From a virus, in IMG/VR virus record IMGVR_UViG_3300024520_000005, positions 1-50,649 of that record: a stretch of DNA of 50,649 nt. One strand, given 5' to 3'. Positions 8,736-49,595 of this stretch are shown piece after piece (the first letter of the stretch is position 1; the number at the start of each line of letters is the position of its first letter). Under the pieces are notes generated by a model. That model was given only the letters and a program-made list of their open reading frames with translations, did not search any database and was not told where the DNA came from. The position numbers were made by a program, and so were the translations under genes.

Positions 8736-9004
8736 GCAATCAGATGATAGATAATTGCGAGCTATCGCCGCTAGGTGTCGGCGTTGAAGCTAAAGAACCA
8801 TACGTCGAGGGCAAGGCTTATATGGTGGCGTGGAAACATTATGAAGAAGGATTTATAGGATGGTTCAAGTCTATCTATATGAGCGATGACGCACAGGCGA
8901 TAGAGCGGGAATGGGAGGTAGTAGATCTAGCATGGCCGAGCCATATCGAAGAAGCTACAGCCATTAAAGCTTGTGAGATTCACAGGGAGGGTGGTGGGGC
9001 ATGA
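8732..9004 (+). CDS. hypothetical protein (90 aa)
   Basis: ATGA overlap, GGAGGGGAA upstream. Confidence 0.6.
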   Translation: MSNQMIDNCELSPLGVGVEAKEPYVEGKAYMVAWKHYEEGFIGWFKSIYMSDDAQAIEREWEVVDLAWPSHIEEATAIKACEIHREGGGA

Positions 9005-9195
9005 AGATATTGCAATGCTACCAAAAATGGAGATGCCGTAGAGAATGGAAGCTCAAGTATCCCGACCCGCTTATCGTATGCCCATTATGGCGTAGTTGTT
9101 CTCATGTGGACGGAATGCTATGTGACCCGCGCCGATGCAACATGCTAGATTCACACGACGACTTAACGGAATACAGAGAGGATGAGGGGAAATGA
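9001..9195 (+). CDS. Cys-rich hypothetical protein (64 aa)
   Basis: ATGA overlap, GGGAGGGTGG upstream. Confidence 0.5.
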   Translation: MKILQCYQKWRCRREWKLKYPDPLIVCPLWRSCSHVDGMLCDPRRCNMLDSHDDLTEYREDEGK

Positions 9196-9371
9196 ATCCA
9201 TTTAAGCCCACTGCACGTCGGGATATCTCGCGGAGAGAGAAGGTGATATGTCTGGATATCGGTGCTGACCGGAAGGCAAGATTAAGCCAATTCTGCGCCA
9301 GTCGTAACATCAGCAAGACCGACATGATTAAGCAGATGATCGACCACTGTATTGAGGAGGAGGGGAAATGA
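9192..9371 (+). CDS. ribbon-helix-helix (CopG/Arc-like) DNA-binding protein (59 aa)
   Basis: ATGA overlaps at both ends. Beta-strand KVICLDIG followed by two short helices. Below the track's size cut-off. Confidence 0.45.
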   Translation: MNPFKPTARRDISRREKVICLDIGADRKARLSQFCASRNISKTDMIKQMIDHCIEEEGK

Positions 9372-9574
9372 AGAAGACAACAGGCTACGTAATCATCACA
9401 CCAGAAGGTACTATCATGGACGGCTCTAACCATACGCGCAAACGGGATGCTACCAACTTCGCGGAATACATAGAGCAGCTAACATGGAAGGATCTATACG
9501 ACTGCTACTACCGCTGCCAGAAAGTCGAGATCATTCCGATAGAAAGGAAGAAGAAGGGTGGCTATCATCACTAA
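9368..9574 (+). CDS. hypothetical protein (68 aa), last gene of the plus arm
   Basis: ATGA overlap, GGAGGGGAA upstream. Confidence 0.55.
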   Translation: MKKTTGYVIITPEGTIMDGSNHTRKRDATNFAEYIEQLTWKDLYDCYYRCQKVEIIPIERKKKGGYHH

Positions 9575-9688
9575 TCAGTCAATGCCACTTTATGCCCCTA
9601 GAAGGGATCGGAAGCCTTCACCCTACACTTACTACTAATAATCCATCCAAACGCCGTACAGGGCCTCTGACAGCCTCCTATGGGCATC

Positions 9689-10213
9689 CTACACAGTATT
9701 CCGTGGCGGCTCTATCATCAATCTCCCCGTCTGGGCATGTAGGCTGACAGTTGGTAGCAATCTCTGCAACTGTCTGTCGCCGAACATATGCTCCCATTGG
9801 GGCTTGAGCGGCTTCGGGAATATGCGATCATGCCAAGCTGCCTTGATCTTCCTGGAATGCCTGATGGCGTAGTATCTATGATAGCGCAACTGCCGCTTGA
9901 GCCAACTATTGCTAGCCTTGTGCATCAGCTTATACATCTGGTCTATCATCAGCTTGCCAGAGTCGCCTTCATGGTAGACGCCATCAGCATCTATCCTATG
10001 CTCATATATCCAATCATGTGGCGCGGCTATCACGCATTTAGGAAGCCTGAACTTCTCTGGCTCGCGGAAGTCTATGGCTACCGTATGCCCATCGAAGGTG
10101 TAGCCTGCGGGGATGAGGAAGCGCGGGAAGTCGGGGATGGCTATAATGTAGGAATAGGCGTTGACAACTGTGTGGTCCCAGAAGAACATCTTGCCGCCGT
10201 CATCTTCGCTCAT
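9689..10213 (-). CDS. DUF1353-like protein (174 aa), last gene of the minus arm
   Basis: Start moved to the ATG forming an ATGA overlap with the upstream stop. GYTFDGHT...APHDWIYEH resembles the DUF1353 signature. Confidence 0.5.
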   Translation of the reverse strand: MSEDDGGKMFFWDHTVVNAYSYIIAIPDFPRFLIPAGYTFDGHTVAIDFREPEKFRLPKCVIAAPHDWIYEHRIDADGVYHEGDSGKLMIDQMYKLMHKASNSWLKRQLRYHRYYAIRHSRKIKAAWHDRIFPKPLKPQWEHMFGDRQLQRLLPTVSLHAQTGRLMIEPPRNTV

Positions 10214-12610: not shown

Positions 12611-15600
12611 TTATCGTGAACGGCTTAGTGTGCGCTTACGTTTCTTCTTAGAGTCACCTACGATAGCACGTTTGCCAATCTGGTAATAGCCTTTTAATGT
12701 GCGATATGGAATACCCTTCCAAAGCTGTGCAGCTTGCCCTAGCAGATCTTCCGCACTATCCAATATCTTTATAGCATCCTTTTCCCGTACAGCAGAAGCT
12801 AGCCCCTGCGCGTCATCTAGCGCATCACCAACAGCACTCGTAAGCATAAGCTGCGGCTCAAAGGAATGCGTCTTTTCGCCTGTAGTAACTAGCTGGCCTA
12901 GGGACTGTATCGAAGATGACGCTAATCCGTAATACGGGAGCGTAGACAGATTGCTGGTCAGCACAGACAACGCTTTGTCGGTAGCATAATGCTTCTTGGG
13001 CGGGATGCCTTTGAGCTTCTTGCGAGCCTCATCAATAGCCACATTCCCCGCAGCCATGATGATTGTTATAATGGTAAGGTTTCGCATAGTCCTGCCCAGT
13101 GACTGCTCACCAGCCTTGAATGCCCTGACATTATCCGCAACCATCATTAAGTTCTTGGAACGCTGACTCATAAACTTAGTGATGAGCTTCCATCCAGGCT
13201 CTTTATGGCGTAGGTATGCTGGCCTGTCTATCATGTCAAATGTAGGCTGAGTCATCCTGACAATCCTGTGAGTCTCTTTCATGGTGGCCTCAGTCAACGC
13301 CCTGCCGCCCAAGCCTGTCTCGGCTATCTTATCCCGCACAGCCGTAGCTATGCTTAGGACTACATCTCTGTCAGCATTGAGAATGGGATTCATGGACCGC
13401 TCTGCAATAGTGCGCTTGCCGTTCAGGAATGCCCTGACATCGTTCCCCGCAGCCATGTCACCTACGTCTTGATTGAATGTCAATGATGCGTACCTGTCAA
13501 AGAGCAATAGCCCCCAGTCGCCGCCCTGCTTCATATCATTAAGCGTGACGCGATTAGGTGACGCAGCGGCTTTAGCGAGTCGTGCTGCTCCTATTTGCGT
13601 AGAAGCCGAGGCGAAAGATAGATACTGCTTAGCCTTAACGAAATAGTTATAGCCTAAGGCTACGGTTGTGAGCCTGTTATTAAGCGTTGCCAGCCACTTC
13701 ATATCCCTTTTGATCGGCACAATATCAGTTTCTATTGCCAAGATGTGTTCTTCCATGGCGCGATATGCTTCTTCGCCGCCAGCCTTCTCGATAGAGTCTC
13801 GCACTTCGGGGCGAGCAAGGAACTCCTTAGCATTCTGTATAGGTTCAGCAAGGCCATGATAACGGGCTATGCTTCTAGCCCCCTGCTCTGATGTTACGAG
13901 CGCATCACCTATGACCAGAGGCTTCACGGTGCCTGTTCTGGCTATCAGGGATGAAGGCTCACCTATGGCTTCCTGTTGATACTTCCGAAAGGTTGTGAGC
14001 TTCTGCCTGTCGCGGGGATCTATATAACGCCGCACATGGTCCTCTACGGTGGCCTTGTCGTAGCCATCCACGGCAACTGATGTCTCGCTGATCTGCCGCT
14101 TCTGTGTGCCGTTCTCGTATTTGTGAAGGATTGTAGCGACCCGCTTCTCCTGAGGGGTTAGGCTGCGCTGGAATGTATCCACATCATCTGCTGTCAGCTT
14201 AAAGAGATCGCTCTTTGCGGCAGCTAATCTAAAGCCGCCATCTCTATGGAGTAGGTCTTTAATGTCGGCACTCATCATGTGCCTTGCCATAACCACGCGC
14301 TCCATGCGGGTCATCTCAATGTCTCGCCCACTCTGGAGTTTCCAGTGTATGTAATCCACACCTTTAGCCTTGGTTCTGTCGCCGCTAGGACGGGTGCGTA
14401 GGCCGAAGTCACTCCATCTACGTAGCTCCTTACGTGGAATAAGCTGCCGTATGGGGGTCAGCACTTCCTCTTGATATTCCTGATTAGCTCTCACTTCTTT
14501 AGAGCGGCCTAGATGTAAGTCTCTAACTACATACTCGCCACCTACACCATTCTCACCCTCAATGTCCCGCATCCTATATTCGGCATTCTTGACCACGCTA
14601 GCAGCGCGATCCCTTGCGCGAGTGTGAGCAGCCTGTGCTGGCGTCCTGTCTCGCCGCTTTAGCTTATCGCTATTCTTAGTGACGCCTTCGCTCATAGCCT
14701 CGGCATCTTGCTTCATGGTCCTGCTATGCCCATGTGCTATGTGATCCTGCTTCTGGTCATTGAGCTTCTTGAGATGCAGCAATGTGTTCGTTACGAGATC
14801 CACTTCATCAAGCGTCATCTCACTGAGAGGCTTCTTGTTAAGGCGTTGCAGCTTACCAAGCACTTCATCAGGAAGTCTGTGGTCAGGATTCTTCTCAAGG
14901 AACTTGGCTGTGCCATCAAGTGACATGCGTGTAGATTCGGTCATATCCGTGGGGTCGATAGATTCTATGATCTGCTTAATTGGTCCCTGATATTCAGGAC
15001 GCAGCTTCTTGAAGCCCTTGGTCTGCTTGGTGATCTTCTTAGACACCTTCCGGTATTGGGTGACAGCAACCTGCCGCTTATATTCAGATTCAATCCTGTC
15101 TATCTTCCTGATAGCTCGCTCATATTGCAGGCGAGTAGTAGCCTTATCTGCTATCCTAGCTACAGCCGCAGCTTGCCGCACAGTCAGGGTTTCTCTGGCG
15201 TACTGCTTGATATCATCCCGTAGTATCGCATGGTTACGCTTCTTACGGGCGACCTCTAGCGATATGCGCTTACGGGTTTCCACTCTGCCCACTCTCTCGC
15301 CCTCGCGTAACGCCTGTCTTTCTGCCGTCATCTGCCGCTTAATAGCCCGTACTTCGGCCATATCATCCCTGATAGATTGCCGCTCAAGCTCCCGCGCTTC
15401 TGCTGCACCAACCCGCCGTAATGCTTTAGCTAGCTGCGCTTCCGTCTTCGCACTCTTGACGGCCTTGGCTATGGTTTCTGGAACCTTCCCGCGCAAAGCT
15501 GACTTAGCATATTCGATAATAGAATCTTGGATAGCAGCCCTGTCGCCAGCCTTAGTCCTAACCTTCGCCATTAAGTCGGCGCGTTCTTCATGTCTACCCC

Positions 15601-17443
15601 AACGCTCGCCGCTTCCGAAAGCCTTACGCTCAAGCCGTAGCTGTTCAGCATGGGACACTTTATCACTCAAGGCCAAGAGTTTGGTCATCGGTATGCCACT
15701 GTCTTCCATTGCGGCGAGACGACCTGCTATCTTTGCATCTACAACATCGTTTCCGTGGGCGTCAGTGGGCCTAGGCTGCGCTATCCTTAGCTCTGAAGCT
15801 AATGCCCTACCTCCGACCTTTCGTGCAGCCCTAGCCGCATCTACGGCCTCCCTAGTGGATGCCTGCTGGAATAGGGCATCATTCAATGCTTGGCGTCGAT
15901 CAAGATGCTTCGGGGGCAGGAGGGTGAATGGTGTATGCTCCTCGCCCGCTTCAAGCTGTGGTATCTCCCGCACAGCAGGCTCAACATCTTCCCTTACTTC
16001 TTCGGGGTCGATGGCTCGCTGTACATCTTCCGGTACAGCTATATCATCTTGAACTGATGCGTCACGCGCAGGCAAGGGGGCTACTTCCCTCGACTCCCTA
16101 TGGGCTATCCATCGCGCCTTGACGCTCGCCTTGAAATCTTTGGACGCCTTCTTCATGAGCCGCGCCCTGTGTTTCTCAAAGTTGGGATCAGTGAAATCCA
16201 TGCCAGCAAACAGAACAGCCTGCGCCGTATTGACTATATTCTCTGGCCTGTTGAACCATTCCCAGAATTCGCTCTTCTTGACTTCCTTGCGCCACCATCT
16301 ATCTGTAGCGTAATCTGTCCCGACATCAGCTATCACCTGAGCCGCAAAGTTCAGGGCTTTCCTACCTACTTCGCCAGATGCGCCAGAAGGGACTATATGC
16401 TCTGCGCCGAAGCCTATGAAAGCTAGAGCCATAGACTGAGCCATGTTACCTGCTGACCGACTAAGCCTATCCTTTAGCTTGCCTTCGCCCATAGTCAAAT
16501 CAACCAGAGCATTCCCGCCGCCCATTATGGCACTTGTTCCAAGCCGCAGCTTTAGCATGGTGAGCAATGTGCGCTTAGATGGATCGGCAAGGATGCCGAG
16601 CCGCTTAGATAAGCCACCAGCAGCTACGCTACCTGTAAGCATGGAGCCAACCATGCTCATGATGCCGCTATTGACTTGCTCAAAGGTGCTTCCTGGCGTG
16701 ATGATATTGGGATCAATGCCAAGGAGTTTAAGCTCCTTCTGGACCAGCTTGTTCGATAGCCCGAAGGTGAGGCCGCTTAGTGTAGACGCATAGGCTTGTG
16801 TAGCCCCGCGACCTATGGCAAATTCAGTCTCTAACTGCTCTGCTGTGCCGCCTTTGGCTCTAGCTCGTAAGTCCGATGCTTTAATTAGCAGGTCCCTGTC
16901 GCCCGTAGCCTGTAGCTTATCGGCTTCTTCCATCAGGAATGCGCTGTATTGGTCCTGTGGTGAACCATGTCTGACGGTACGCTTGTTCAGTCCACCTTCC
17001 CGCTTCTTCCACGCCTCAAAGCCTTCTGCTAATCCGCGATCAACCTCCTGCACTTTGCTTAGTTCTGCGCGGCCTTGCTCTAAAGCTGCCTGCCTGTCGC
17101 TTTCGCTGCCAGCCCTATCTATTCGTTGCCGAGCTGTCAGGGCTATCCTTGTGCCCTGCTCCAGCCCTCTAAGGCTATCAGATGGTGTAGCAGAAGCCTG
17201 CGTCGGTTGTGGCTGCGTGGAGGCACCAGCAAGGCGTTGCAGGCTCTCAGCTACAGGGGAAGGGGTGCGTGTAGGCAAGGGGCGAGACAACACATCTTCG
17301 ATATCCACACCATCAACACTAGGAGCAGGAGCTTCCTGTGTAGGGATGGGCCGTGATAGTATGTCATCGACATCCACGCTAGGGGCTTGCGCTTCCGGTG
17401 TGGTCGGTATCGGCCTACTTAGGATATCATCTATATCAGCCAT
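12611..17443 (-). CDS. giant virion-associated (internal/ejection-type) protein, 1610 aa
   Basis: Longest ORF. N-terminal triple repeat, Gly-rich hydrophobic segments at about residues 225-350, and a long coiled-coil with a tandem 103-aa duplication. Confidence 0.55.
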   Translation of the reverse strand: MADIDDILSRPIPTTPEAQAPSVDVDDILSRPIPTQEAPAPSVDGVDIEDVLSRPLPTRTPSPVAESLQRLAGASTQPQPTQASATPSDSLRGLEQGTRIALTARQRIDRAGSESDRQAALEQGRAELSKVQEVDRGLAEGFEAWKKREGGLNKRTVRHGSPQDQYSAFLMEEADKLQATGDRDLLIKASDLRARAKGGTAEQLETEFAIGRGATQAYASTLSGLTFGLSNKLVQKELKLLGIDPNIITPGSTFEQVNSGIMSMVGSMLTGSVAAGGLSKRLGILADPSKRTLLTMLKLRLGTSAIMGGGNALVDLTMGEGKLKDRLSRSAGNMAQSMALAFIGFGAEHIVPSGASGEVGRKALNFAAQVIADVGTDYATDRWWRKEVKKSEFWEWFNRPENIVNTAQAVLFAGMDFTDPNFEKHRARLMKKASKDFKASVKARWIAHRESREVAPLPARDASVQDDIAVPEDVQRAIDPEEVREDVEPAVREIPQLEAGEEHTPFTLLPPKHLDRRQALNDALFQQASTREAVDAARAARKVGGRALASELRIAQPRPTDAHGNDVVDAKIAGRLAAMEDSGIPMTKLLALSDKVSHAEQLRLERKAFGSGERWGRHEERADLMAKVRTKAGDRAAIQDSIIEYAKSALRGKVPETIAKAVKSAKTEAQLAKALRRVGAAEARELERQSIRDDMAEVRAIKRQMTAERQALREGERVGRVETRKRISLEVARKKRNHAILRDDIKQYARETLTVRQAAAVARIADKATTRLQYERAIRKIDRIESEYKRQVAVTQYRKVSKKITKQTKGFKKLRPEYQGPIKQIIESIDPTDMTESTRMSLDGTAKFLEKNPDHRLPDEVLGKLQRLNKKPLSEMTLDEVDLVTNTLLHLKKLNDQKQDHIAHGHSRTMKQDAEAMSEGVTKNSDKLKRRDRTPAQAAHTRARDRAASVVKNAEYRMRDIEGENGVGGEYVVRDLHLGRSKEVRANQEYQEEVLTPIRQLIPRKELRRWSDFGLRTRPSGDRTKAKGVDYIHWKLQSGRDIEMTRMERVVMARHMMSADIKDLLHRDGGFRLAAAKSDLFKLTADDVDTFQRSLTPQEKRVATILHKYENGTQKRQISETSVAVDGYDKATVEDHVRRYIDPRDRQKLTTFRKYQQEAIGEPSSLIARTGTVKPLVIGDALVTSEQGARSIARYHGLAEPIQNAKEFLARPEVRDSIEKAGGEEAYRAMEEHILAIETDIVPIKRDMKWLATLNNRLTTVALGYNYFVKAKQYLSFASASTQIGAARLAKAAASPNRVTLNDMKQGGDWGLLLFDRYASLTFNQDVGDMAAGNDVRAFLNGKRTIAERSMNPILNADRDVVLSIATAVRDKIAETGLGGRALTEATMKETHRIVRMTQPTFDMIDRPAYLRHKEPGWKLITKFMSQRSKNLMMVADNVRAFKAGEQSLGRTMRNLTIITIIMAAGNVAIDEARKKLKGIPPKKHYATDKALSVLTSNLSTLPYYGLASSSIQSLGQLVTTGEKTHSFEPQLMLTSAVGDALDDAQGLASAVREKDAIKILDSAEDLLGQAAQLWKGIPYRTLKGYYQIGKRAIVGDSKKKRKRTLSRSR
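17255..17443 (-). repeat. three tandem ~20-codon repeats (D[IV]DDILSRPIPT...APSV) at the start of the giant gene
   Basis: Read directly from the translation: ADIDDILSRPIPT / VDVDDILSRPIPT / VDIEDVLSRPLPT. Confidence 0.8.
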
Positions 17444-26046: not shown

Positions 26047-26628
26047 TTATGCTGCTCCTATACTGCTCCGAGTTGCTTCTTGCTTCTTAATTTTTTCTTG
26101 CCTCTTCCTCCATGAATGCTCAGTCGTAACTTCGCTATGACAATTCGCGCACAGCAGTACGCACTTACTAAGCTCGTCCTCAAGCCTGCCAAACGACCAC
26201 CCGTTACTAATTTTTGACGAAATAGTCAACGTCTTAAGCTCTGGGTCAACATGGTGAAACTGCAATGCTGATAAATGCTCAGAGTACCCACATAGAAGAC
26301 ACTTACCACCAAGGTACTCAACACACTTAATCTTGGTTCCGCGCGACCTCTTGCGATGCCTATCAAGACACGCCGCACCGCTCTTGTGGTAATGCTTGCG
26401 TGATCGTGCCCTGACGTAGGCCCGTCGCTTATCGCACCAATCCTTCTGCCACTTCCTATTGCGAGCGCGAGCCTCGGGCTTCTGCGTTTGTGCAAGAATT
26501 TTATCCTTATTCGCCGCAAAATATTCCCGCCGCTTTCGCTTGATTTCTTCTCTGTATTCAGCATCTTCCGCGTACCGCTTCTTGAGTCTCGCTTTATACT
26601 CCTCATACTTCTCTTTTGAATAAGCCAC
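26047..26628 (-). CDS. HNH homing endonuclease, GTG start
   Basis: GGGAGG 7 nt before the GTG. Basic R/K-Y repeat N-terminus. CLLCGY...LQFHHVDP...KCVLLCANCH HNH core. Confidence 0.75.
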   Translation of the reverse strand: MAYSKEKYEEYKARLKKRYAEDAEYREEIKRKRREYFAANKDKILAQTQKPEARARNRKWQKDWCDKRRAYVRARSRKHYHKSGAACLDRHRKRSRGTKIKCVEYLGGKCLLCGYSEHLSALQFHHVDPELKTLTISSKISNGWSFGRLEDELSKCVLLCANCHSEVTTEHSWRKRQEKIKKQEATRSSIGAA

Positions 26629-27688: not shown

Positions 27689-28198
27689 CTACGCTGCTGG
27701 TGCGGCTTCTACTGCAACCGTCAGCACTTTGACTGTGACTCTGGCGAGTGTATCTGCTGAATCATCCTGGAATGGACGGTCCAACCACAGCGGCGATACG
27801 AGCTGTAATACCTTGATGGTATTGCTGTCGATGTCGATGGTGCAGAGATTTGAGGTTACATCCATCTCAAACTGCTGCCCACGCGCTGCTTCCGTCACGG
27901 CTCCGTCAAGCTCGTTCATCAGGAAGACCTGATTGGGAGTGACGATACCAAACGACTTGCGTGTAGTGTCTGCGCCGATTGCGGTGCCGAGGGTTTCCAT
28001 TGCGATATGCGTAATGGCCGAGGCCGCTACACTTGTCGCGCTCGATGCCGCTTCGTACATCAATCCATCGCTCGCTAGTCTGCAAAACTGAGAGGCATTG
28101 TACGTTGCCGCTCCGTCTACAAGGTACTCATCATGGGCCAGAAGTGCGCCATCAGAGCTAGAAGTACACGCTGGATTTACTGCCGTTAGTGTTGCCAT
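27689..28198 (-). CDS. head decoration / cement-like protein (169 aa)
   Basis: Immediately upstream of the capsid gene as in lambda D-E order. Ala/Thr-rich. Confidence 0.35.
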   Translation of the reverse strand: MATLTAVNPACTSSSDGALLAHDEYLVDGAATYNASQFCRLASDGLMYEAASSATSVAASAITHIAMETLGTAIGADTTRKSFGIVTPNQVFLMNELDGAVTEAARGQQFEMDVTSNLCTIDIDSNTIKVLQLVSPLWLDRPFQDDSADTLARVTVKVLTVAVEAAPAA

Positions 28199-32423: not shown

Positions 32424-33095
32424 TCAACTTGTCAGTATTGCTTCAATCTTCTCAATGGGAACTATCTTCAGCCGCCTGTCTCCGACTGTTATGTTCTGGA
32501 ACGTGTCCTCATGTGGCAGGACTGCTGTGGCACCTACCGTCACTGCTACTGGAATCGTGCCGCCATCCTGATCTACTATGCCCAAGCCTACGCCTGTCAC
32601 AATAGCCTCTGTAGGCAATCTTTCGGCGTTATCAGGCATCTCCAAGAGGTCGCCGCCCATATCCCGCCATGACTCCTTAGGCTCAACTAGGACCCTGTGG
32701 CCTAATGGCTCATATTCACCATCTTCAAAGCGTACTGTTGGCAATGCTTCATCAATAAAGAACTCATGCTGACTCCACGGCGAATGCTTAATGTAATCTA
32801 TGTGATGCTCTGGGCATGTGATTACATCACCCACTTTCCAGTTGACGCCAGCAGACCATTCAAATTCGTGTGGCTCCATCTCCCTTGCTTCGCCGCAGCC
32901 TGTGCCTATAGCTAATACCTCAAACCAATGGCATATGTCAACAGACTTCTCGGGCCGCTCTAATTCCACCTTGCCATCTGGCGTGTCCAGCATGATAGCT
33001 GCTGGCTTACATTTGCGTACATATAGCCAATGGCCCCGTAAGTCTAATACTGCGTCGTTCTCAAGACCAAGAAGATTCTCATTCGTGCGAGACAT
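32424..33095 (-). CDS. tandem GroES/Cpn10-like protein (223 aa)
   Basis: C-terminal half aligns by eye with GroES (PLGHRVLVEPKE ... GGDLL ... TGVGLG ... VGATAVLP ... LKIVPIEKIEAIL). The N-terminal half repeats the pattern (LRGHWLYVRKCK ... VLAIGTGCG ... KVGDVI). Confidence 0.5.
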   Translation of the reverse strand: MSRTNENLLGLENDAVLDLRGHWLYVRKCKPAAIMLDTPDGKVELERPEKSVDICHWFEVLAIGTGCGEAREMEPHEFEWSAGVNWKVGDVITCPEHHIDYIKHSPWSQHEFFIDEALPTVRFEDGEYEPLGHRVLVEPKESWRDMGGDLLEMPDNAERLPTEAIVTGVGLGIVDQDGGTIPVAVTVGATAVLPHEDTFQNITVGDRRLKIVPIEKIEAILTS

Positions 33096-33137: not shown

Positions 33138-34988
33138 TTATCTAGCCCCTGCTCTCCGATACCCTGTGTATTTAGATGGTTGTAGCTGCCCCTTGGGTGT
33201 GTCTGTAAGTTCCCTGACGCCGCGTGGTAGTAGGGATTCCGAGGGGCTGCGTAGTGATGGGCCGCAATACCTAGGCTCATCCCCATCCTTAGTGCGTAAA
33301 ACGTATTTCATGGCTGTCAGCAGGTCGTTACCCTTATTCTCTGGGTCACGGCTTTCTTCCTTGTAGACATAGCCTTCAATCTCCCCGCGCAGTCTTGTCA
33401 GCGTGTTGAAGATATACAGCCTTGGTGACGCATGAATGGGCGCGTCCGTGTCGGGATTGATAACCTGATCCATAATCTTCATGCGAACTAATAGATGCTC
33501 ACGTTCTGGGACCGGAGCAAAATACTCATTCCTGAGAATGGGAATGATATTCCTGTCGTGCATTCCCGAAGCCTGTATGCAATCAAGCCCCGCGTCTGAA
33601 TACACTTCGCCTTCTGTCTTGGTGATATCCTTGGTTGGATGTGAGAAGTTGCGGGAATCCATCGAAGAATACACATACTTCTCGCCGCAGAACTCCTCGC
33701 GGAAGTAGACAGTAGTATTGCCATCAAGGTCCATGCTCGGGTCGCCTGACTGCACACGCTTGTTCCCGCTAGCTTCGATAATATTGATAACGTTATCGCG
33801 CATAGACAGATTAGCTTCCCTGTATTCCCTGAACAGCACGACATCATGCCAAGGCGACGCAGCAGCCCAGAGGCAGGCCATATGGTGACGCTTGCCAGGG
33901 TCTATGCCGCGATAGAGAGTCCAATGCTTCGGGATGGTGAAGGGGTCAATCCACTGCACAGATGGATTCCATTCTTCGTAGACTAGCCCTTCCCTCGATT
34001 CAAAGTCGCCATAATACTTAGCTTTGCCATGCCTGATATCCACCATGTTCCCACTCTTTCTAGGAGCCACGATATACTTGAAGTATTCGCGCTTCTTTCT
34101 TGATGCTGAAATTATACAGTTAGGTACATTATCCGTGTTGATTTGGTACTGTCGAAGCTCTACGCCATCATCGAGGGCACCCAATACCTTTCGATGTATC
34201 CACGTCCCCGCGCCCGTCTCAGGCTGTCCTGCGACCCTGTGTGGCGTACAGGAGATGTGCATACGGCTATTCTCTGCCGTAATAGTCCTGTCGAAGCAGT
34301 TGCGATACACTTCCTCTGGTGGCTGCTCATCACAGAATACATCCTCATATGTAGCCCCTGTCCATGATGTTTCGTTCTGGGCATAGGCATGGAAGTTTAC
34401 GATGGAACCGGAAGCAAACGGGACTGCTGCCCAGCCTGACCCCCAAGGCGGCGTCTTGCGCTTATACTTGCGGCTGGCATCCCTGATCTTCCAATGTGGC
34501 GAGTATTCACGTAGCTCATCTGCCGGCATGATTTCAGCAAACTTCTTCCAGATATTGCGCGAATATAAGGCCATCTGGTATGTGCCTACAGCTATCATCT
34601 TAGCTTCCCATCTTGGCGGCTTTAGCCCGTACTCAAAGCAAGGCCATGTTGGATCTGTAGGGCAGGCGCATAAGCCCAGCTTAGCTAGGAGTGCCCATGT
34701 CTTTCCGCGCTGGACGCCGCTTCTCAGTAATGAGATGCCATCAGCCCAGTCATTGATGAAGTCAACCTGCTGGCAATGGGCAAGGAAGTATGAAAGCCTA
34801 TTCTCCTTGTAGCGTAAGGTTTCCTCGCGGAAGTAGTCTGCTAATAGCGCAGCCTTGCCGCCTAACGCCGACATCATAAGCAGCCAGTTGTCGTCGAATC
34901 TAAGCCATCTGCCCAGCCCCTTAAAGCGTCCCTTCAGGGGTGCCCAAGGAATCATGTACTTCTCGTTACGCTTCTTGATCTGAGCCAT
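33138..34988 (-). CDS. terL: terminase large subunit
   Basis: Walker A RSGVQRGKT, Walker B VFCDEQPPE, coupling motif SCTP, then a nuclease-like C-terminal half (GIDPGKRHHMA...). 616 aa. Confidence 0.8.
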   Translation of the reverse strand: MAQIKKRNEKYMIPWAPLKGRFKGLGRWLRFDDNWLLMMSALGGKAALLADYFREETLRYKENRLSYFLAHCQQVDFINDWADGISLLRSGVQRGKTWALLAKLGLCACPTDPTWPCFEYGLKPPRWEAKMIAVGTYQMALYSRNIWKKFAEIMPADELREYSPHWKIRDASRKYKRKTPPWGSGWAAVPFASGSIVNFHAYAQNETSWTGATYEDVFCDEQPPEEVYRNCFDRTITAENSRMHISCTPHRVAGQPETGAGTWIHRKVLGALDDGVELRQYQINTDNVPNCIISASRKKREYFKYIVAPRKSGNMVDIRHGKAKYYGDFESREGLVYEEWNPSVQWIDPFTIPKHWTLYRGIDPGKRHHMACLWAAASPWHDVVLFREYREANLSMRDNVINIIEASGNKRVQSGDPSMDLDGNTTVYFREEFCGEKYVYSSMDSRNFSHPTKDITKTEGEVYSDAGLDCIQASGMHDRNIIPILRNEYFAPVPEREHLLVRMKIMDQVINPDTDAPIHASPRLYIFNTLTRLRGEIEGYVYKEESRDPENKGNDLLTAMKYVLRTKDGDEPRYCGPSLRSPSESLLPRGVRELTDTPKGQLQPSKYTGYRRAGAR

Positions 34989-35006: not shown

Positions 35007-35035
35007 TTGACATATATCATGTTTGCCGCTATTAT
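35007..35035 (+). promoter_or_regulatory. near-consensus sigma70 promoter (TTGACA-17-TATTAT)
   Basis: TTGACA at 35007-35012, exact 17-nt spacer, TATTAT at 35030-35035. The ATG at 35043 lies at the expected transcription start. Confidence 0.6.
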
Positions 35036-35042
35036 CCGCGCC

Positions 35043-35471
35043 ATGTCATATTACGAGACCATCCGAGCGCAGACTACTAAGATGGGCCTACGTTGGCCCG
35101 AGGACATCATCCTTTTTCCTGTTGGGCAGAACGATGATGGGACTGCCGTCTTTTATGCACACTCTGCCCCACTCACCCGCTCCATGTTTGCTACGGGCAA
35201 CAAGAACCCCATCTGCCTGCAACCAATACCGCTTTCTTCCATTGGCAGCTATCTGGAATCCTTCATTGGCTACATCTTCCCTGATGGCGAGATTCGCTGG
35301 GATACGGAAATGATGATGGATAACGGCTTTGACGGCAAGCCTGTGACTATTCTGCCTGTTCATATTATCATGTACTCCTACAATTACCCACATCATCTCC
35401 GTCAGCATCTAGCCGCAGAGAAAGCCAAGCGGTCCGTGGACAAGAATGCTATTGTCCTAGCCACGCATTAA
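35043..35471 (+). CDS. reverse-oriented hypothetical protein (142 aa), possibly leaderless
   Basis: Only plus-strand gene inside the minus arm. In-frame ATG 8 nt after the -10 box and no SD. Confidence 0.5.
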   Translation: MSYYETIRAQTTKMGLRWPEDIILFPVGQNDDGTAVFYAHSAPLTRSMFATGNKNPICLQPIPLSSIGSYLESFIGYIFPDGEIRWDTEMMMDNGFDGKPVTILPVHIIMYSYNYPHHLRQHLAAEKAKRSVDKNAIVLATH

Positions 35472-35472
35472 G

Positions 35473-35775
35473 CTAATCTTCCAGCAATCCTTCTGCGTTA
35501 TACTTCTTCAGCTTGCTATTGACAATCTCCAGCTTCCCACCGAATGCTCTGAACTTAGCTGCAATCGTAGGCAGATCATCCACGTCATTTATCCTGAGGC
35601 TCAGGAAGTTGGCGGGATTAGGAGGCCGCTTCTCATCCACAGGCTGCGGAACAGGGATGACAAACTGCACAGTCCCGAAGCGCGTGAACTTGTTGTTTGG
35701 CGACTCCATGATAGTCTCATCTTCTGCCCGTATGCTGACTTTCCAGCCGTTACCTTCTCGTAGTGTGTCCTGCAT
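35473..35775 (-). CDS. hypothetical protein (100 aa)
   Basis: AAAGGAGAA SD, TAATG overlap with the upstream gene. Confidence 0.6.
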   Translation of the reverse strand: MQDTLREGNGWKVSIRAEDETIMESPNNKFTRFGTVQFVIPVPQPVDEKRPPNPANFLSLRINDVDDLPTIAAKFRAFGGKLEIVNSKLKKYNAEGLLED

Positions 35776-36338
35776 TATTGTTCTCCTTTGTCGTGATATA
35801 CCCTAAGTGGAACGCCATCATTGACGATTCCAGCAAGCTTGTCATAAATCCACATCTCGCCCCGCTGCTGAACAGTGGCCTTGTTGCCTATAATGGGTGT
35901 CATAGCTAATGACATAGAGGGATACCCGCTGACGATCCTGCGATCCACCTCATTGGTGTAGATGTCATATGAAGGCGGCAGGTCCCAGAACCAATGCTCT
36001 AAGCCTAGGTTGATACGAGGGCTAGACTGATAGCTGAAGAAGTATATCATCGAGCCATTGGGCATCTCAAGCTCGGCCCAGCCCGAACTCCATGCTGGTG
36101 TCTTCACATCCCCGCCCATGTCAGGCAATAAGGACAGCAGCTTGGGCCATAGGTTATGCGGGAACAGGGACATAGCCATTGTGCCCAACCCAACCTCTAC
36201 AGGCTTCTCGGCTGTGCATACCTGCACCATCTTCGTCAGTAAGGCCATAGTCTTCCCGCTCTGCACCCCCGCCAGTAGGATGGACAAGCCTTCATCCTTG
36301 TCGTCTATAAATGCCTGTGGCTTATCTCTAAATGTCAT
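35775..36338 (-). CDS. TerL ATPase-domain paralogue lacking the nuclease domain (187 aa)
   Basis: Start at the ATG after AGAGGAGG. Colinear blocks with TerL: LLAGVQSGKTMALL vs LLRSGVQRGKTWALL, WSSGWAELEMPNGSMIYFFSY vs WGSGWAAVPFASGSIVNFHAY, FWDLPP vs FCDEQPP, LAMTP vs ISCTP. Confidence 0.65.
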   Translation of the reverse strand: MTFRDKPQAFIDDKDEGLSILLAGVQSGKTMALLTKMVQVCTAEKPVEVGLGTMAMSLFPHNLWPKLLSLLPDMGGDVKTPAWSSGWAELEMPNGSMIYFFSYQSSPRINLGLEHWFWDLPPSYDIYTNEVDRRIVSGYPSMSLAMTPIIGNKATVQQRGEMWIYDKLAGIVNDGVPLRVYHDKGEQ

Positions 36339-36391
36339 ATTGTTTATTCCTCCTCTTTTGGTATATCGCATAGCATCTAATGTTGACGACA

Positions 36392-36580
36392 TCAGCCTTC
36401 CTGCTCTTTCCATACATTCTGCCTAAAGCATTCCCCGCATCGCTTAGGATGCCCCTTACAGCCCTTCACGGACTTCATACAGAAGCCAGCAGTGGGATAG
36501 TTCCCGCGCTCCTTGGCTGTACGCTGCTTCATGGTGCCGTCATTGCCTGCTACGCCACCCATCTCAGATGTTAGGCTCAT
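36392..36580 (-). CDS. small Cys-rich protein (62 aa)
   Basis: GGAGGG 9 nt upstream of the ATG. CMKSVKGCKGHPKRCGEC. Confidence 0.45.
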   Translation of the reverse strand: MSLTSEMGGVAGNDGTMKQRTAKERGNYPTAGFCMKSVKGCKGHPKRCGECFRQNVWKEQEG

Positions 36581-36803
36581 TGCTTGTTCCCTCCTGTGGT
36601 TGCCATCCCTGCCCCTGTCTACGCCTGTGAATCCCCACAATGGGATTCCCCGCCAGCCTCTTCCCGCGAGCGCATCCTATGGCACAATATATCCATGTGC
36701 TTTTCCCGCGAGAGGCGCAAAGGCCAGCCCCAGCTAAGGCCCTACTCTTGCATCTGTCGTCGCTAAGCAGTGATTCATTATAGCCAAGATCACACGCGAT
36801 CAT
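36564..36803 (-). CDS. hypothetical protein (79 aa), weak call
   Basis: ATGA overlap with the upstream stop. Competing ORFs exist on both strands. Confidence 0.3.
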   Translation of the reverse strand: MIACDLGYNESLLSDDRCKSRALAGAGLCASRGKSTWIYCAIGCARGKRLAGNPIVGIHRRRQGQGWQPQEGTSNEPNI

Positions 36804-37084
36804 TGCTTCCTCCATCTCATTAGCTTCTTTATCGCCGCCTTCAGCCATTTATCAGGCTTAGGGCGGGAACACACTGATGTCATGCGTGTAAGGGCTAGCT
36901 TATCCTGAAGCTGGCTTATGCGCCGAAGCAGCATGTGACGTTCTGCCTCCAGCTTGGGAACAAGCTCTCGCCATTTCCAATGCTCATGATACATATGCCG
37001 AAGCCGCCCCGCTTCCGCTAGCTCTGTCACCCTGTCGATATCCATCAGGTCGAGATTGCCGCCGTATGGCATAATGTCGTTCAT
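36800..37084 (-). CDS. hypothetical protein (94 aa)
   Basis: Track ORF, AAGGATGGGG upstream. Confidence 0.55.
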   Translation of the reverse strand: MNDIMPYGGNLDLMDIDRVTELAEAGRLRHMYHEHWKWRELVPKLEAERHMLLRRISQLQDKLALTRMTSVCSRPKPDKWLKAAIKKLMRWRKQ

Positions 37085-37142
37085 GCTGCCCCATCCTTGC
37101 CCAATACCGCAAACTCTCTCTCCGCATGTTTCAGTAGATTAC

Positions 37143-38120
37143 TCATTGCTTCCCCTCCTTGTCCAGCCCGTTCTCGGCTATGATGGCGCGGCAGATGTCT
37201 GTGGTGTAATGTTGCCTGTCAAAATGATTCTCGCCACTAGGCGTATTGGGATTGATGTGATGGAACTTGACGCAAGCATATTCATCCGAGGCTCCATATC
37301 CCACCACAACCATCTTCACGCCGCAATGAGTCACTTCCTTCCCCAGGGGCAACAACGCCTTGATGGGAGCCATCTCAGCCTCCTGTTTATCCTTGGATAT
37401 CTGAAGGGCTAGTGTGGCCAGGTCTTCGATGGCCTTGTCGCGCTCGGCTATCAGGGCGGCAACCTGCTTAGTATGCTCCGTGGATCTGTAGTCTGCCGTC
37501 TTGCACATGCTCTCCAGTCTCTTTAAGCGATATCCATTCGTAGCTTCCAGCTCCGCAATCCGCTTCTTTCCGAATATGTCCATGATTCTCCCCTTCTTTG
37601 TTGGTGTAGCTGCAATATAGTTCATGTCGTGTTTCCGAGCTAGCGACCATTGCTCGTAGTCAGCAGAGGTCATCCTGCTTGTTTCATCCATACCATTAGC
37701 CCCGCTCGTTGCTAAGTCGTACCATTCCTCAACTATGTGATGCCCCTGAGCTACCAGTTCGGAATAGCCAATGTGCCTAGCTTCCTCTGCCCCTGATCGC
37801 GGCGGCAGGGCATCCTTCAGCATCCATTTAGCCTCACAGCCACCTACCTTGCCGCCCCGCATGGCATCTGTGATCGCGCCGTTAGCTGCCCATTCGTTGT
37901 ACACATGATCGAGATACGCCTTGTCCAGCTTGAATGCCAAGCCGCGAATACGCTTAGTCGGCTTCCACCAGCAGGCGTCCTTCTCTTTCTCTCTCATCTT
38001 ACAGTATGTAAGGCTGCTTTTATACACCTCCTCTGTGTTATGCTCCCGCATCTCGGCCTCAGTCGGCACATGCCCACGACTTATCTTCAGATTCCATTCT
38101 CGGGCTTCGTCTGCATTCAT
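37143..38120 (-). CDS. hypothetical protein (325 aa)
   Basis: Start at the ATG with an ATGA overlap. No recognisable motif. Confidence 0.6.
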   Translation of the reverse strand: MNADEAREWNLKISRGHVPTEAEMREHNTEEVYKSSLTYCKMREKEKDACWWKPTKRIRGLAFKLDKAYLDHVYNEWAANGAITDAMRGGKVGGCEAKWMLKDALPPRSGAEEARHIGYSELVAQGHHIVEEWYDLATSGANGMDETSRMTSADYEQWSLARKHDMNYIAATPTKKGRIMDIFGKKRIAELEATNGYRLKRLESMCKTADYRSTEHTKQVAALIAERDKAIEDLATLALQISKDKQEAEMAPIKALLPLGKEVTHCGVKMVVVGYGASDEYACVKFHHINPNTPSGENHFDRQHYTTDICRAIIAENGLDKEGKQ

Positions 38121-39823: not shown

Positions 39824-39852
39824 AATCTACAGGAAGTCGCGCTGGCTGTCAA
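39824..39852 (-). promoter_or_regulatory. sigma70-type promoter on the minus strand (TTGACA-17-TAGATT)
   Basis: The reverse complement reads TTGACA gccagcgcgacttcctg TAGATT. It lies about 50 nt upstream of the HTH gene start. Confidence 0.55.
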
Positions 39853-39970
39853 CCATCTTTCTGAAAAAGGGACCTGCTGACAGCCGAAAGGGTAGCCGCC
39901 AGCAGGCCCCAGAGGGACGTGTCAATGCGCTAGCCACACCAACACCATGCTACATGCAACTCCTGCGAAG

Positions 39971-40631: not shown

Positions 40632-41108
40632 CTAGCTGAATAGCTTTTTGCGGTCGTCATTACGCGATTCGTAGGTTGTAGGCTCTAATTCTGGTTCGGA
40701 TTGCTTCAGTTTGATAGCTGAGTTAACAGCTTGTGTACCAACAGCCTTAAGGGACGCGGCATCTTGAACCGTTTTAACCTGTATATCCCCGTCTATGATT
40801 GCATCTCTGATTAGCTTGTTACATGCATGTGCTATGCTTAGATCCTCAGCTGCTATCACGGAAGCCCCTACATGCTTCAGCTTGTCTATGGTTGCTACGT
40901 ATCTGCCCTTAAGCGTATATGCCGTCCTTGTACTGATACCATTCATCTTGGCAGCTCTTTCCGCTCCGAAGAATGCTATATCTATCAGTGTATCTGTATC
41001 CTTGGCAGGTATGTCATCCGGTACTATAGACAATATCTGAACAGCCTTATCTTTTGTTTCTACCTGCTTAGCTATTCTCTTTTCCATTGTGTGTTTATGT
41101 ATAGTCAT
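40632..41108 (-). CDS. HTH DNA-binding protein (158 aa); regulator or small-terminase-like, unresolved
   Basis: Start moved to the first in-frame ATG (no stop before the protein body) downstream of the promoter at 41143-41171. AERAAKMNGISTRTAYTLKGRY HTH-like segment. No SD. Confidence 0.45.
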   Translation of the reverse strand: MTIHKHTMEKRIAKQVETKDKAVQILSIVPDDIPAKDTDTLIDIAFFGAERAAKMNGISTRTAYTLKGRYVATIDKLKHVGASVIAAEDLSIAHACNKLIRDAIIDGDIQVKTVQDAASLKAVGTQAVNSAIKLKQSEPELEPTTYESRNDDRKKLFS

Positions 41109-41142
41109 AATCTTGCATGATGATTGTTTAGATAACGCCGGA

Positions 41143-41171
41143 ATCATAAAGTACGCCGCTCCCCTTGTCAA
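41143..41171 (-). promoter_or_regulatory. near-consensus sigma70 promoter on the minus strand (TTGACA-17-TATGAT)
   Basis: The reverse complement reads TTGACA aggggagcggcgtactt TATGAT. It lies inside the long track ORF 40632-41219, which argues for the shorter CDS. Confidence 0.6.
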
Positions 41172-41238
41172 TAGCTGATTGCTGGCCCGTCCTGTACGGT
41201 GTCCGTGTATGTCTGTCATATGTCAGGATTACGCCGAA

Positions 41239-48923: not shown

Positions 48924-49040
48924 ACTGATGAGACATAACACAATATCTATTAAATCAAAACTAACTAGCCCCAGAACGATTCTGCCTTCGGGTAGCGTGT
49001 GTCTCATCAGGCCGCGCGGGATCGTCGAGGGGCTTTTTTC
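48924..49040 (+). ncRNA. candidate ~117-nt structured RNA or transcription attenuator
   Basis: Perfect 11-bp long-range stem (48925-48935 / 49000-49010). C(UUCG)G hairpin at 48982-48995. Crossing helix 48968-48980 / 49021-49033 followed by TTTTTTCTTT. No credible ORF. Confidence 0.4.
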
Positions 49041-49187
49041 TTTATGTGGCAGGAACTGCATCACGGGACGGTTCTCGGAACGCTGTGTGCAGCAGAGGTC
49101 TTGGAGTGGACGCGTGTTGCACCGTACACTCCCTGCCTGCCACTATTTTTCCAGTGGAAGGGCTGGGGAAGGTCAGGAGTGTGTGTT

Positions 49188-49595
49188 ATGAGTGAATGGA
49201 GCGAGAAGTATAAAGACCCAAGATGGAAACAGAAGCGATCAGAGATTATCAAGAGAGACAATAGCCGTTGCTGTATTTGTATGGCTGAAGATAGTCATTT
49301 AGAGGTGCATCATGACTACTACACCCCCTCTGCTGATGGTCCGTGGGATTATCCAGACACATCCCTCACCACCCTCTGCCCTGCATGTCATAAGGTTATG
49401 ACTGCGACAACGAGAGCTGTTAAAGCCGCCCTTTTTATCTTCGTCAATAAGCGGCAATGGTACGACTTCATTGTTAGCGATAGCGCAGAGGACACTATGT
49501 ATCTTGTGAGGTCGATAATGGAAGCGTTAAGTCGAGCAAGAGACGGCAGCAGGGCGTCACTGAAGCTATGGGGTAACGAAGGGGGTGCAGAATGA
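49188..49595 (+). CDS. HNH-motif protein (135 aa)
   Basis: AGGAG SD at the internal ATG. CCIC...HLEVHHDYY...LCPACH. Confidence 0.55.
   Translation: MSEWSEKYKDPRWKQKRSEIIKRDNSRCCICMAEDSHLEVHHDYYTPSADGPWDYPDTSLTTLCPACHKVMTATTRAVKAALFIFVNKRQWYDFIVSDSAEDTMYLVRSIMEALSRARDGSRASLKLWGNEGGAE

Follow-up and report, generated by a model that had tools for sequence, protein, structure and literature searches.

A 50,649-nucleotide virus sequence from IMG/VR (record IMGVR_UViG_3300024520_000005, positions 1 to 50,649; the whole stretch is referred to below as the window) encodes a complete large terminase (TerL) of 616 amino acids (aa) and, on the same strand, a 187-aa protein that is a true paralog of the ATPase core of its own genome's TerL. 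On balance, we think it somewhat probable from the sequence that this protein is a lineage-specific partial duplicate of the resident terL gene, which would have been kept as an expressed protein and would now be a pseudo-ATPase. The two genes are as follows.

35775..36338, minus strand: paralog of the TerL ATPase core, 187 aa (P0001), corresponding to TerL residues ~70-287; ATG at 36338, TAA stop at 35777-35775
33138..34988, minus strand: TerL, complete, 616 aa, the parent of the duplicate, with GKT, DEQ and TPH intact and a nuclease domain

The initial annotation of this region, made from the sequence alone, described the 187-aa product as colinear with the ATPase half of TerL, and both pairwise and profile comparisons bear this out. 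BLASTP aligns residues 10-182 of the paralog with residues 77-282 of the 616-aa TerL in a colinear fashion (E 8e-25, 31% identity), and hhalign matches it over 171 columns to a profile of 16 TerLs built without the paralog (probability 97.9%, E 3.2e-13). All five sequence blocks that the annotation had quoted in support of the relationship are present in the sequence. Against Pfam Terminase_6N the paralog scores 14.8 bits, under the gathering threshold of 22 bits, and TerL itself matches this family with an E of 3.6e-6. A family profile that includes the paralog as one of its rows (A1) matches the nuclease region of the D6E TerL, and an AlphaFold2 (AF2) model of the full TerL, with a predicted local distance difference test score (pLDDT) of 80, contains both domains. 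No nucleotide similarity is left between the paralog and terL.

Structure prediction for both proteins extends this correspondence to the fold, with the core of the paralog matching the TerL ATPase element by element. The AF2 model of the paralog, computed from an input alignment of TerLs, is compact (pLDDT 87.4, predicted template modeling score 0.85), and its top Foldseek matches in the PDB are the TerL ATPase domains of D6E, P74-26, T4 gp17, Sf6 and HK97, with E down to 5e-6 and a query-normalized template modeling score (TMq) of ~0.6. The best matches in BFVD, a collection of predicted viral structures, are likewise large terminases. When the secondary structures of the two models are compared, the paralog matches TerL 74-283 in all core elements, namely seven strands, the helices following the two Walker motifs, and the helix that precedes the final strand. 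What the paralog lacks is peripheral to this core: TerL residues 1-70, a peripheral helix and loop (~108-128), a helix with a long, low-confidence loop (~156-175), and the two lid/linker helices (295-326). The C-terminal, RNase H/RuvC-like nuclease domain is missing as well, as had been noted initially, since the paralog ends at the equivalent of TerL 287. Local alignment of the three frames upstream of the paralog start to TerL 1-80 revealed no homology to the TerL N-terminus, and a "TL..RY.K" resemblance upstream, considered as a residue of that N-terminus, was rejected when its alignment scored no better than shuffled sequences. A split TerL is ruled out, as the 616-aa TerL has every ATPase motif together with the nuclease domain.

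The active-site motifs were examined in an alignment of the paralog with 16 TerLs that are 27-100% identical to that of the window (A1). Three of them can be placed in the paralog as follows.

36249..36272, minus strand: Walker A / P-loop, A23-G-V-Q-S-G-K-T30; fits [AG]xxxxGK[ST], with G28 and K29 in invariant columns
35976..35996, minus strand: Walker B strand, H115-W-F-W-D119, followed by L120-P121; the Asp is invariant
35895..35906, minus strand: remnant of the coupling (C) motif, A145-M-T147-P148; T147 is invariant and P148 nearly so

The GKT P-loop is kept (A23-GVQSGK-T30), as the annotation had stated, and its GVQxGKT form is common to the paralog, its own TerL and the nearest relative, P0003. 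The replacement of the catalytic Glu of Walker B also stands: 16/16 TerLs have Glu-Gln directly behind the Walker B Asp, and only the paralog lacks this pair, its DEQ having become DLP. The His of the T-P-H motif (TerL H250), invariant in the 16 TerLs, falls in a gap in the paralog, which alone also lacks Y137, Q204 and N79. Retained, on the other hand, are the FI(N/D)D motif upstream of the P-loop, the one well-conserved Arg of the family (R133, equivalent to TerL R234), and residues T155, W163, G170, G175 and Y181. The two Arg residues that flank Walker A in TerL (R89 and R94) do differ in the paralog, as claimed, but their replacement is no evidence of a degenerate site, because both positions vary freely across the TerL family: the position two before the P-loop Lys is occupied by R, Y, Q, V, D, I or A, and the upstream Arg position by R, W, Y, V, M or A. 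As read from these motifs, the paralog has an intact P-loop and has lost its catalytic carboxylate. In TerL and in other ATPases of the additional strand, catalytic glutamate (ASCE) class, the Glu that follows Walker B serves as catalytic base, and because the paralog lacks it, the protein probably binds nucleotide without hydrolyzing it.

The copy can be traced to its own lineage. In a neighbor-joining tree of the region common to all sequences, the paralog is sister to its own TerL in 97% of 500 bootstraps, to the exclusion of P0003, which is the closest known relative (its TerL is 48% identical over the tree columns). Branch lengths are ~1.0-1.2 substitutions per site for the paralog versus ~0.1-0.4 for TerL, a roughly 5x difference. 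We therefore place the origin of the copy inside its own lineage, followed by evolution several-fold faster than that of the parent; on this tree, the duplication dates from after the split of the resident TerL lineage from its nearest known relative.

No counterpart of the paralog was found outside this lineage. No ortholog was found by tblastn in 50,697 cultured phage records, and neither IMG/VR nor a 5.8-billion-cluster index contained any beyond the paralog itself and its own TerL, which were also the only two sequences matched by an exhaustive phmmer search of 1.84 billion representatives. Nine related loci (L001-L009) that represent six distinct relatives, with TerLs 28-45% identical to that of the window, share a conserved module consisting of an opposite-strand gene, terL, a small protein, the portal and the capsid. 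The pair formed by terL and a shortened copy is absent from all of them: within 8-10 kb of terL, tblastn detected no second TerL-like sequence in any of the nine loci, only terL. In the window, the paralog and an adjoining 100-aa open reading frame (ORF) lie in a variable region, immediately beyond the conserved left edge of the packaging module. The paralog is thus an accessory gene of one uncultured lineage and not a core packaging component.

Gene duplication is also seen at another position of the head module. In L001, the head-module gene just upstream of the capsid gene is present as a tandem pair (8989-9501 and 9513-10031), both copies of which match the window protein encoded at 27689..28198, which shows that the clade has small-scale duplication in the head module elsewhere too. 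At that position in L007, two 160-aa genes stand side by side (15299-15781 and 15803-16285), with no tblastn match to the window protein. The possibility that the paralog is part of a remnant of a larger duplicated head module was considered and rejected: the 100-aa ORF is unrelated both to a 262-aa head-module protein and to the TerL profile, and a weak match to L004 (E 6e-4) was not reproduced within the window. The same 100-aa ORF had no homolog in the 5.8-billion-cluster search.

The surroundings of the paralog, including the genes on either side of terL, are listed here.

36392..36580, minus strand: 62-aa Cys-rich ORF (C..KGC..CGEC) with a good Shine-Dalgarno sequence
36349..36356, minus strand: Shine-Dalgarno sequence AGAGGAGG, 10 nt before the paralog ATG, read from the sequence
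35473..35775, minus strand: 100-aa orphan ORF, its ATG overlapping the paralog stop (TAATG)
35007..35471, plus strand: opposite-strand gene, ~140-150 aa, directly upstream of terL; no family match
32424..33095, minus strand: 223-aa GroES-domain protein, downstream of terL and followed by a 752-aa portal-sized protein and the rest of the head module

The good ribosome-binding site and the distance of 0.8 kb to terL given in the initial annotation are both correct, as AGAGGAGG lies 10 nt upstream of the ATG and the gap between the two genes measures 786 bp. The overlap of its start with the paralog stop suggests that the 100-aa ORF is probably co-translated with the paralog. On the other side, the TGA of the 62-aa ORF overlaps an alternative in-frame ATG (36392) of the paralog ORF, at which the gene caller of one assembly began the paralog, giving a 205-aa product (P0019). 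The opposite-strand gene at 35007..35471 is found by tblastn in the same position and orientation in L001-L004 and delimits the ancestral terL module on its left. It is provided with a sigma-70-like promoter site (11/12 match, TTGACA-17-TATTAT, at 35007-35035), and its transcription would oppose that of the gene run containing the paralog and terL. Upstream of that run, a strong terminator-like hairpin at 39910-39869 on the minus strand (17 bp stem, 11 GC pairs, T-run) is directly followed by a promoter-like site at 39852-39824 on the same strand (TTGACA-17-TAGATT). Together, the two elements (39910..39824), both of them consensus matches only, may open the transcription unit of the paralog and terL, and the paralog is possibly co-transcribed with terL. 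A second terminator-like hairpin, at 32398-32368, lies after the gene for the GroES fusion protein.

The arrangement was recovered on three contigs of at least 50 kb from three sources (JGI, ENA and Logan), as well as on a 2-kb contig from a second sample (L012) with 99.8% identity. It is therefore no assembly artifact. Compared with window positions 35136..37196, L012 differs at four positions in all: three single-nucleotide polymorphisms (SNPs) lie within the opposite-strand gene (35150, 35159 and 35230) and one, at 36351, lies within the Shine-Dalgarno sequence of the paralog and changes AGAGGAGG to AGAGGGGG. No SNP between L012 and the window falls within the coding sequence of the paralog or that of the 100-aa ORF.

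The annotation knew of no described equivalent of such a protein, a statement overtaken by T4 vs.8, described in 2026, and, less closely, by Ksap2. T4 vs.8 is an uncharacterized ATPase-like protein of 219 aa that is homologous to the gp17 ATPase domain and has no nuclease; its homologs were retrieved by PSI-BLAST along with T4-like terminases, and it is restricted to specific phage taxa (PMC13601566, Evans et al. 2026). It is the nearest described equivalent of the paralog, being likewise small, related to the TerL ATPase, without a nuclease, present beside a complete TerL and confined to one phage group. The two proteins nevertheless show no sequence similarity (the best BLASTP E is 0.09, out of register), and we therefore conclude that they have independent origins. 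They also differ in several other respects. T4 vs.8 keeps the Walker B Glu (IIDE), which the paralog has lost; it sits among early genes, far from gene 17, whereas the paralog adjoins the terL region; and it is remote from gp17 (pairwise BLASTP is not significant in register), whereas the paralog is an obvious recent copy of TerL. Finally, T4 vs.8 has homologs in specific phage taxa, while the paralog is a singleton. The paralog is accordingly an independent and much younger example of the nuclease-less, TerL-ATPase-like proteins of phages, and the first one found to combine loss of the catalytic Glu with a parent gene close by.

Ksap2 of the Stephanstirmvirinae, whose structure weakly resembles the ATPase domain of the D6E TerL (PMC11564622, Bechon et al.), is similar to the paralog in being a small accessory phage protein of narrow taxonomic range, but it has no detectable TerL sequence homology, is known only as a trigger of Avs2, and has no reported P-loop. 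The TerL ATPase domains themselves (T4 gp17, P74-26, D6E and Sf6 gp2) share with the paralog the ASCE core, the P-loop, the Walker B Asp and the coupling T-P; compared with them, the paralog lacks the catalytic Glu, the lid/linker helices, the N-terminal extension and the nuclease, and it coexists with a complete TerL. Packaging ATPases of the phi29 gp16 type are likewise of the ASCE lineage and without a working nuclease (PMC7672431); phi29 gp16 is, however, the sole active motor and carries a vestigial C-terminal domain, whereas the paralog is an extra and, by its motifs, presumably inactive copy. Two TerL coding sequences side by side are also found in phiPDS1 and in the jumbo Xanthomonas phages XaC1 and XbC2. 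In phiPDS1 the two are halves of one TerL, unlike the extra coding sequence found here, which duplicates the ATPase core of a complete TerL; for XaC1 and XbC2 only two tandem homologs are reported, with no complete TerL described alongside.

We consider it likely that the paralog is a selected gene and not a duplication on its way to being lost, as judged from four indirect tests that agree with one another. In 3000 neutral simulations that started from the terL codons and were run until amino-acid identity fell to the observed 35%, a stop-free frame remained in 0.13% of runs, and the mean number of stops was six, so that only about one in a thousand neutral trajectories of equal divergence would leave a frame such as that observed. 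Every insertion or deletion relative to TerL is in frame. Retention is focused on the columns that the family conserves: in columns with at least 80% conservation across the other 15 TerLs, the TerL residue is kept in 65% of cases, versus 27% in the columns that vary most (Mann-Whitney p 0.008). Where residues have been replaced, the changes are more conservative than neutrality would give, with a mean BLOSUM62 score of -0.47 versus -0.83 +/- 0.15 (P 0.0095), and as conservative as those between real TerL orthologs of similar divergence. Codon usage is native and frame-specific, with an in-frame value of 0.78 that equals those of terL, the portal gene and the capsid gene, compared with 0.67-0.75 in the five other frames. 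These features, along with the strong Shine-Dalgarno sequence, the coupled downstream ORF and the compact and confident AF2 model, are in line with the claim of the initial annotation that the gene is retained, and they count against the alternative that it is a non-functional remnant, namely a partial terL duplication that is drifting to loss and has as yet acquired no stop codon, created perhaps near the packaging-site end of the genome.

Several observations weigh in favor of such a remnant and against selection. The paralog is a singleton with no ortholog found and no counterpart in the relatives, and the neighboring 100-aa ORF is likewise an orphan; the invariant E, Q, H and Y residues have been lost; both ends are truncated and two internal deletions have removed ~17-20 residues each; and its branch is ~5x longer than that of TerL. 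A decaying duplicate in its early stages would likewise evolve fast, lose invariant residues and be truncated at both ends. Part of the evidence for selection must be read with care: the TerL alignment used as AF2 input biases the paralog model toward the TerL fold, and the identities between paralog and terL at the three codon positions (0.48/0.62/0.32) could partly reflect change on the TerL branch and do not alone exclude neutrality on the branch of the paralog. With a single lineage and two samples encoding an identical protein, selection is inferred indirectly from one sequence, and a ratio of nonsynonymous to synonymous substitution rates (dN/dS) cannot be computed, because the second sample has no SNP inside the paralog coding sequence. 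Taking both sides together, we regard a remnant as unlikely, though to be taken seriously.

If the paralog is a functional protein, its role would follow from what the duplication has kept. The partial copy of terL has retained the alpha/beta ATPase core only, which would bind nucleotide without turnover and would, alone, be unable to cut or translocate DNA. Since such a protein would carry out neither hydrolysis nor cutting nor translocation by itself, it would mimic the ATPase domain of TerL and work through binding and not through catalysis. Its likeliest partner would be the ATPase surface of TerL, or a factor that normally binds that surface, because the paralog is in the same strand-wise run of genes, 0.8 kb upstream of terL; the paralog would then be an accessory modulator and possibly a partner of the packaging motor. 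A different use of the same mimicry would be in conflict, either as a decoy for sensors of the TerL ATPase (Avs1-3, Upx) or as a poison of the packaging rings of related rivals. The TerL ATPase domain is indeed what Avs2 and Upx recognize, and for Upx the ATPase domain alone, or catalytic-site mutants, suffice; in models, moreover, EcAvs2 binds T4 vs.8, and co-expression of the two is toxic (PMC13601566). Lineage restriction, fast evolution and an acidic shift (isoelectric point (pI) 5.15, versus 7.1 for the matching part of TerL) are also typical of arms-race accessory genes. However, the TerL-like small proteins known so far activate sensors and do not block them, so that a mimic would more likely be a liability, and the proposal rests wholly on inference. 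A PADLOC search with the paralog gave no match, which carries little weight either way as the library holds defense and not anti-defense proteins. A role in conflict therefore strikes us as improbable, and its more specific form, a purpose-built, nucleotide-bound mimic of the TerL ATPase that would occupy Avs1-3/Upx-type sensors without triggering them, or would cap and poison the packaging rings of rivals, is a longer shot still. Were it true, a mimic used in conflict would be the first anti-defense or anti-competitor protein derived from TerL.

The initial annotation had proposed yet another role, in which the paralog would substitute for the small terminase (TerS) as a DNA-recognition or regulatory subunit. 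Its premise was accurate: a comparison of ~40 ORFs of the window with PHROGs, supplemented by Pfam for the 16 ORFs close to terL, yielded no TerS family match other than a cross-hit through an HNH domain. The paralog furthermore occupies the usual place of terS, upstream of terL, and is, like TerS, a small protein. A recognizable TerS is, however, commonly absent in divergent phages, and relatives with the same head and packaging module have neither the paralog nor, near terL, a TerS that Pfam can recognize. The missing TerS is therefore a clade-wide annotation gap, reflecting ordinary TerS divergence, that the paralog does not explain. The properties of the protein point the same way: it is acidic, it has no match to TerS, helix-turn-helix (HTH) or other DNA-binding families in Pfam or PHROGs, its model is an alpha/beta P-loop fold that is not TerS-like, it is without the N-terminal 70 residues of TerL, and it is not conserved in the relatives, where the synteny partners of terL are the gene at 35007-35471 and the N-terminal part of the 32424-33095 protein. 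The window also encodes another protein, of 195 aa (40632-41219), with a weak HTH match. Substitution for TerS is thus very improbable, and the accessory modulator derived from the resident terL remains our preferred reading of what the paralog, if functional, would do.

If the paralog is made and binds nucleotide, it would be a natural, trapped-state ATPase core of TerL in which the Walker B Asp is present and the catalytic Glu absent and, with its parent still obvious, a clean case of the birth of a pseudoenzyme in a viral packaging motor. Studies of how the ATPase domain is recognized, whether by TerL subunits or by immune receptors that sense TerL, could use it as a tool or lead. Taken with T4 vs.8, it suggests that the TerL ATPase domain has given rise to nuclease-less copies in phages more than once, although the weight of this single uncultured lineage is limited.

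Several further genes of the window bear on packaging in other ways. The two small, synteny-conserved genes next to terL are candidates for TerS. The 195-aa protein (40632..41219, minus strand) has a sub-threshold winged-HTH match (Pfam HTH_29, E 0.017) and a helical C-terminal part, and is a candidate for a DNA-recognition protein such as TerS; the related loci showed no homolog of it. Some terminases have HNH proteins as known partners, and two HNH-type genes may bear on DNA cutting by this phage: an HNH endonuclease in the replication region (48999..49595, plus strand; PHROG E 5e-13) and a 193-aa gene with a faint HNH match that adjoins the capsid gene (26047..26628, minus strand). The 223-aa protein downstream of terL (32424..33095, minus strand) is a fusion, in which residues 6-125 match the small protein encoded between terL and the portal gene in L001-L006, and residues 128-220 form a GroES/Cpn10 domain (Pfam E 2.9e-8). 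L001-L003 carry Cpn10 as a gene of its own, upstream of terL; the fusion of a co-chaperonin to a protein of the head module, as in the window, is unusual.

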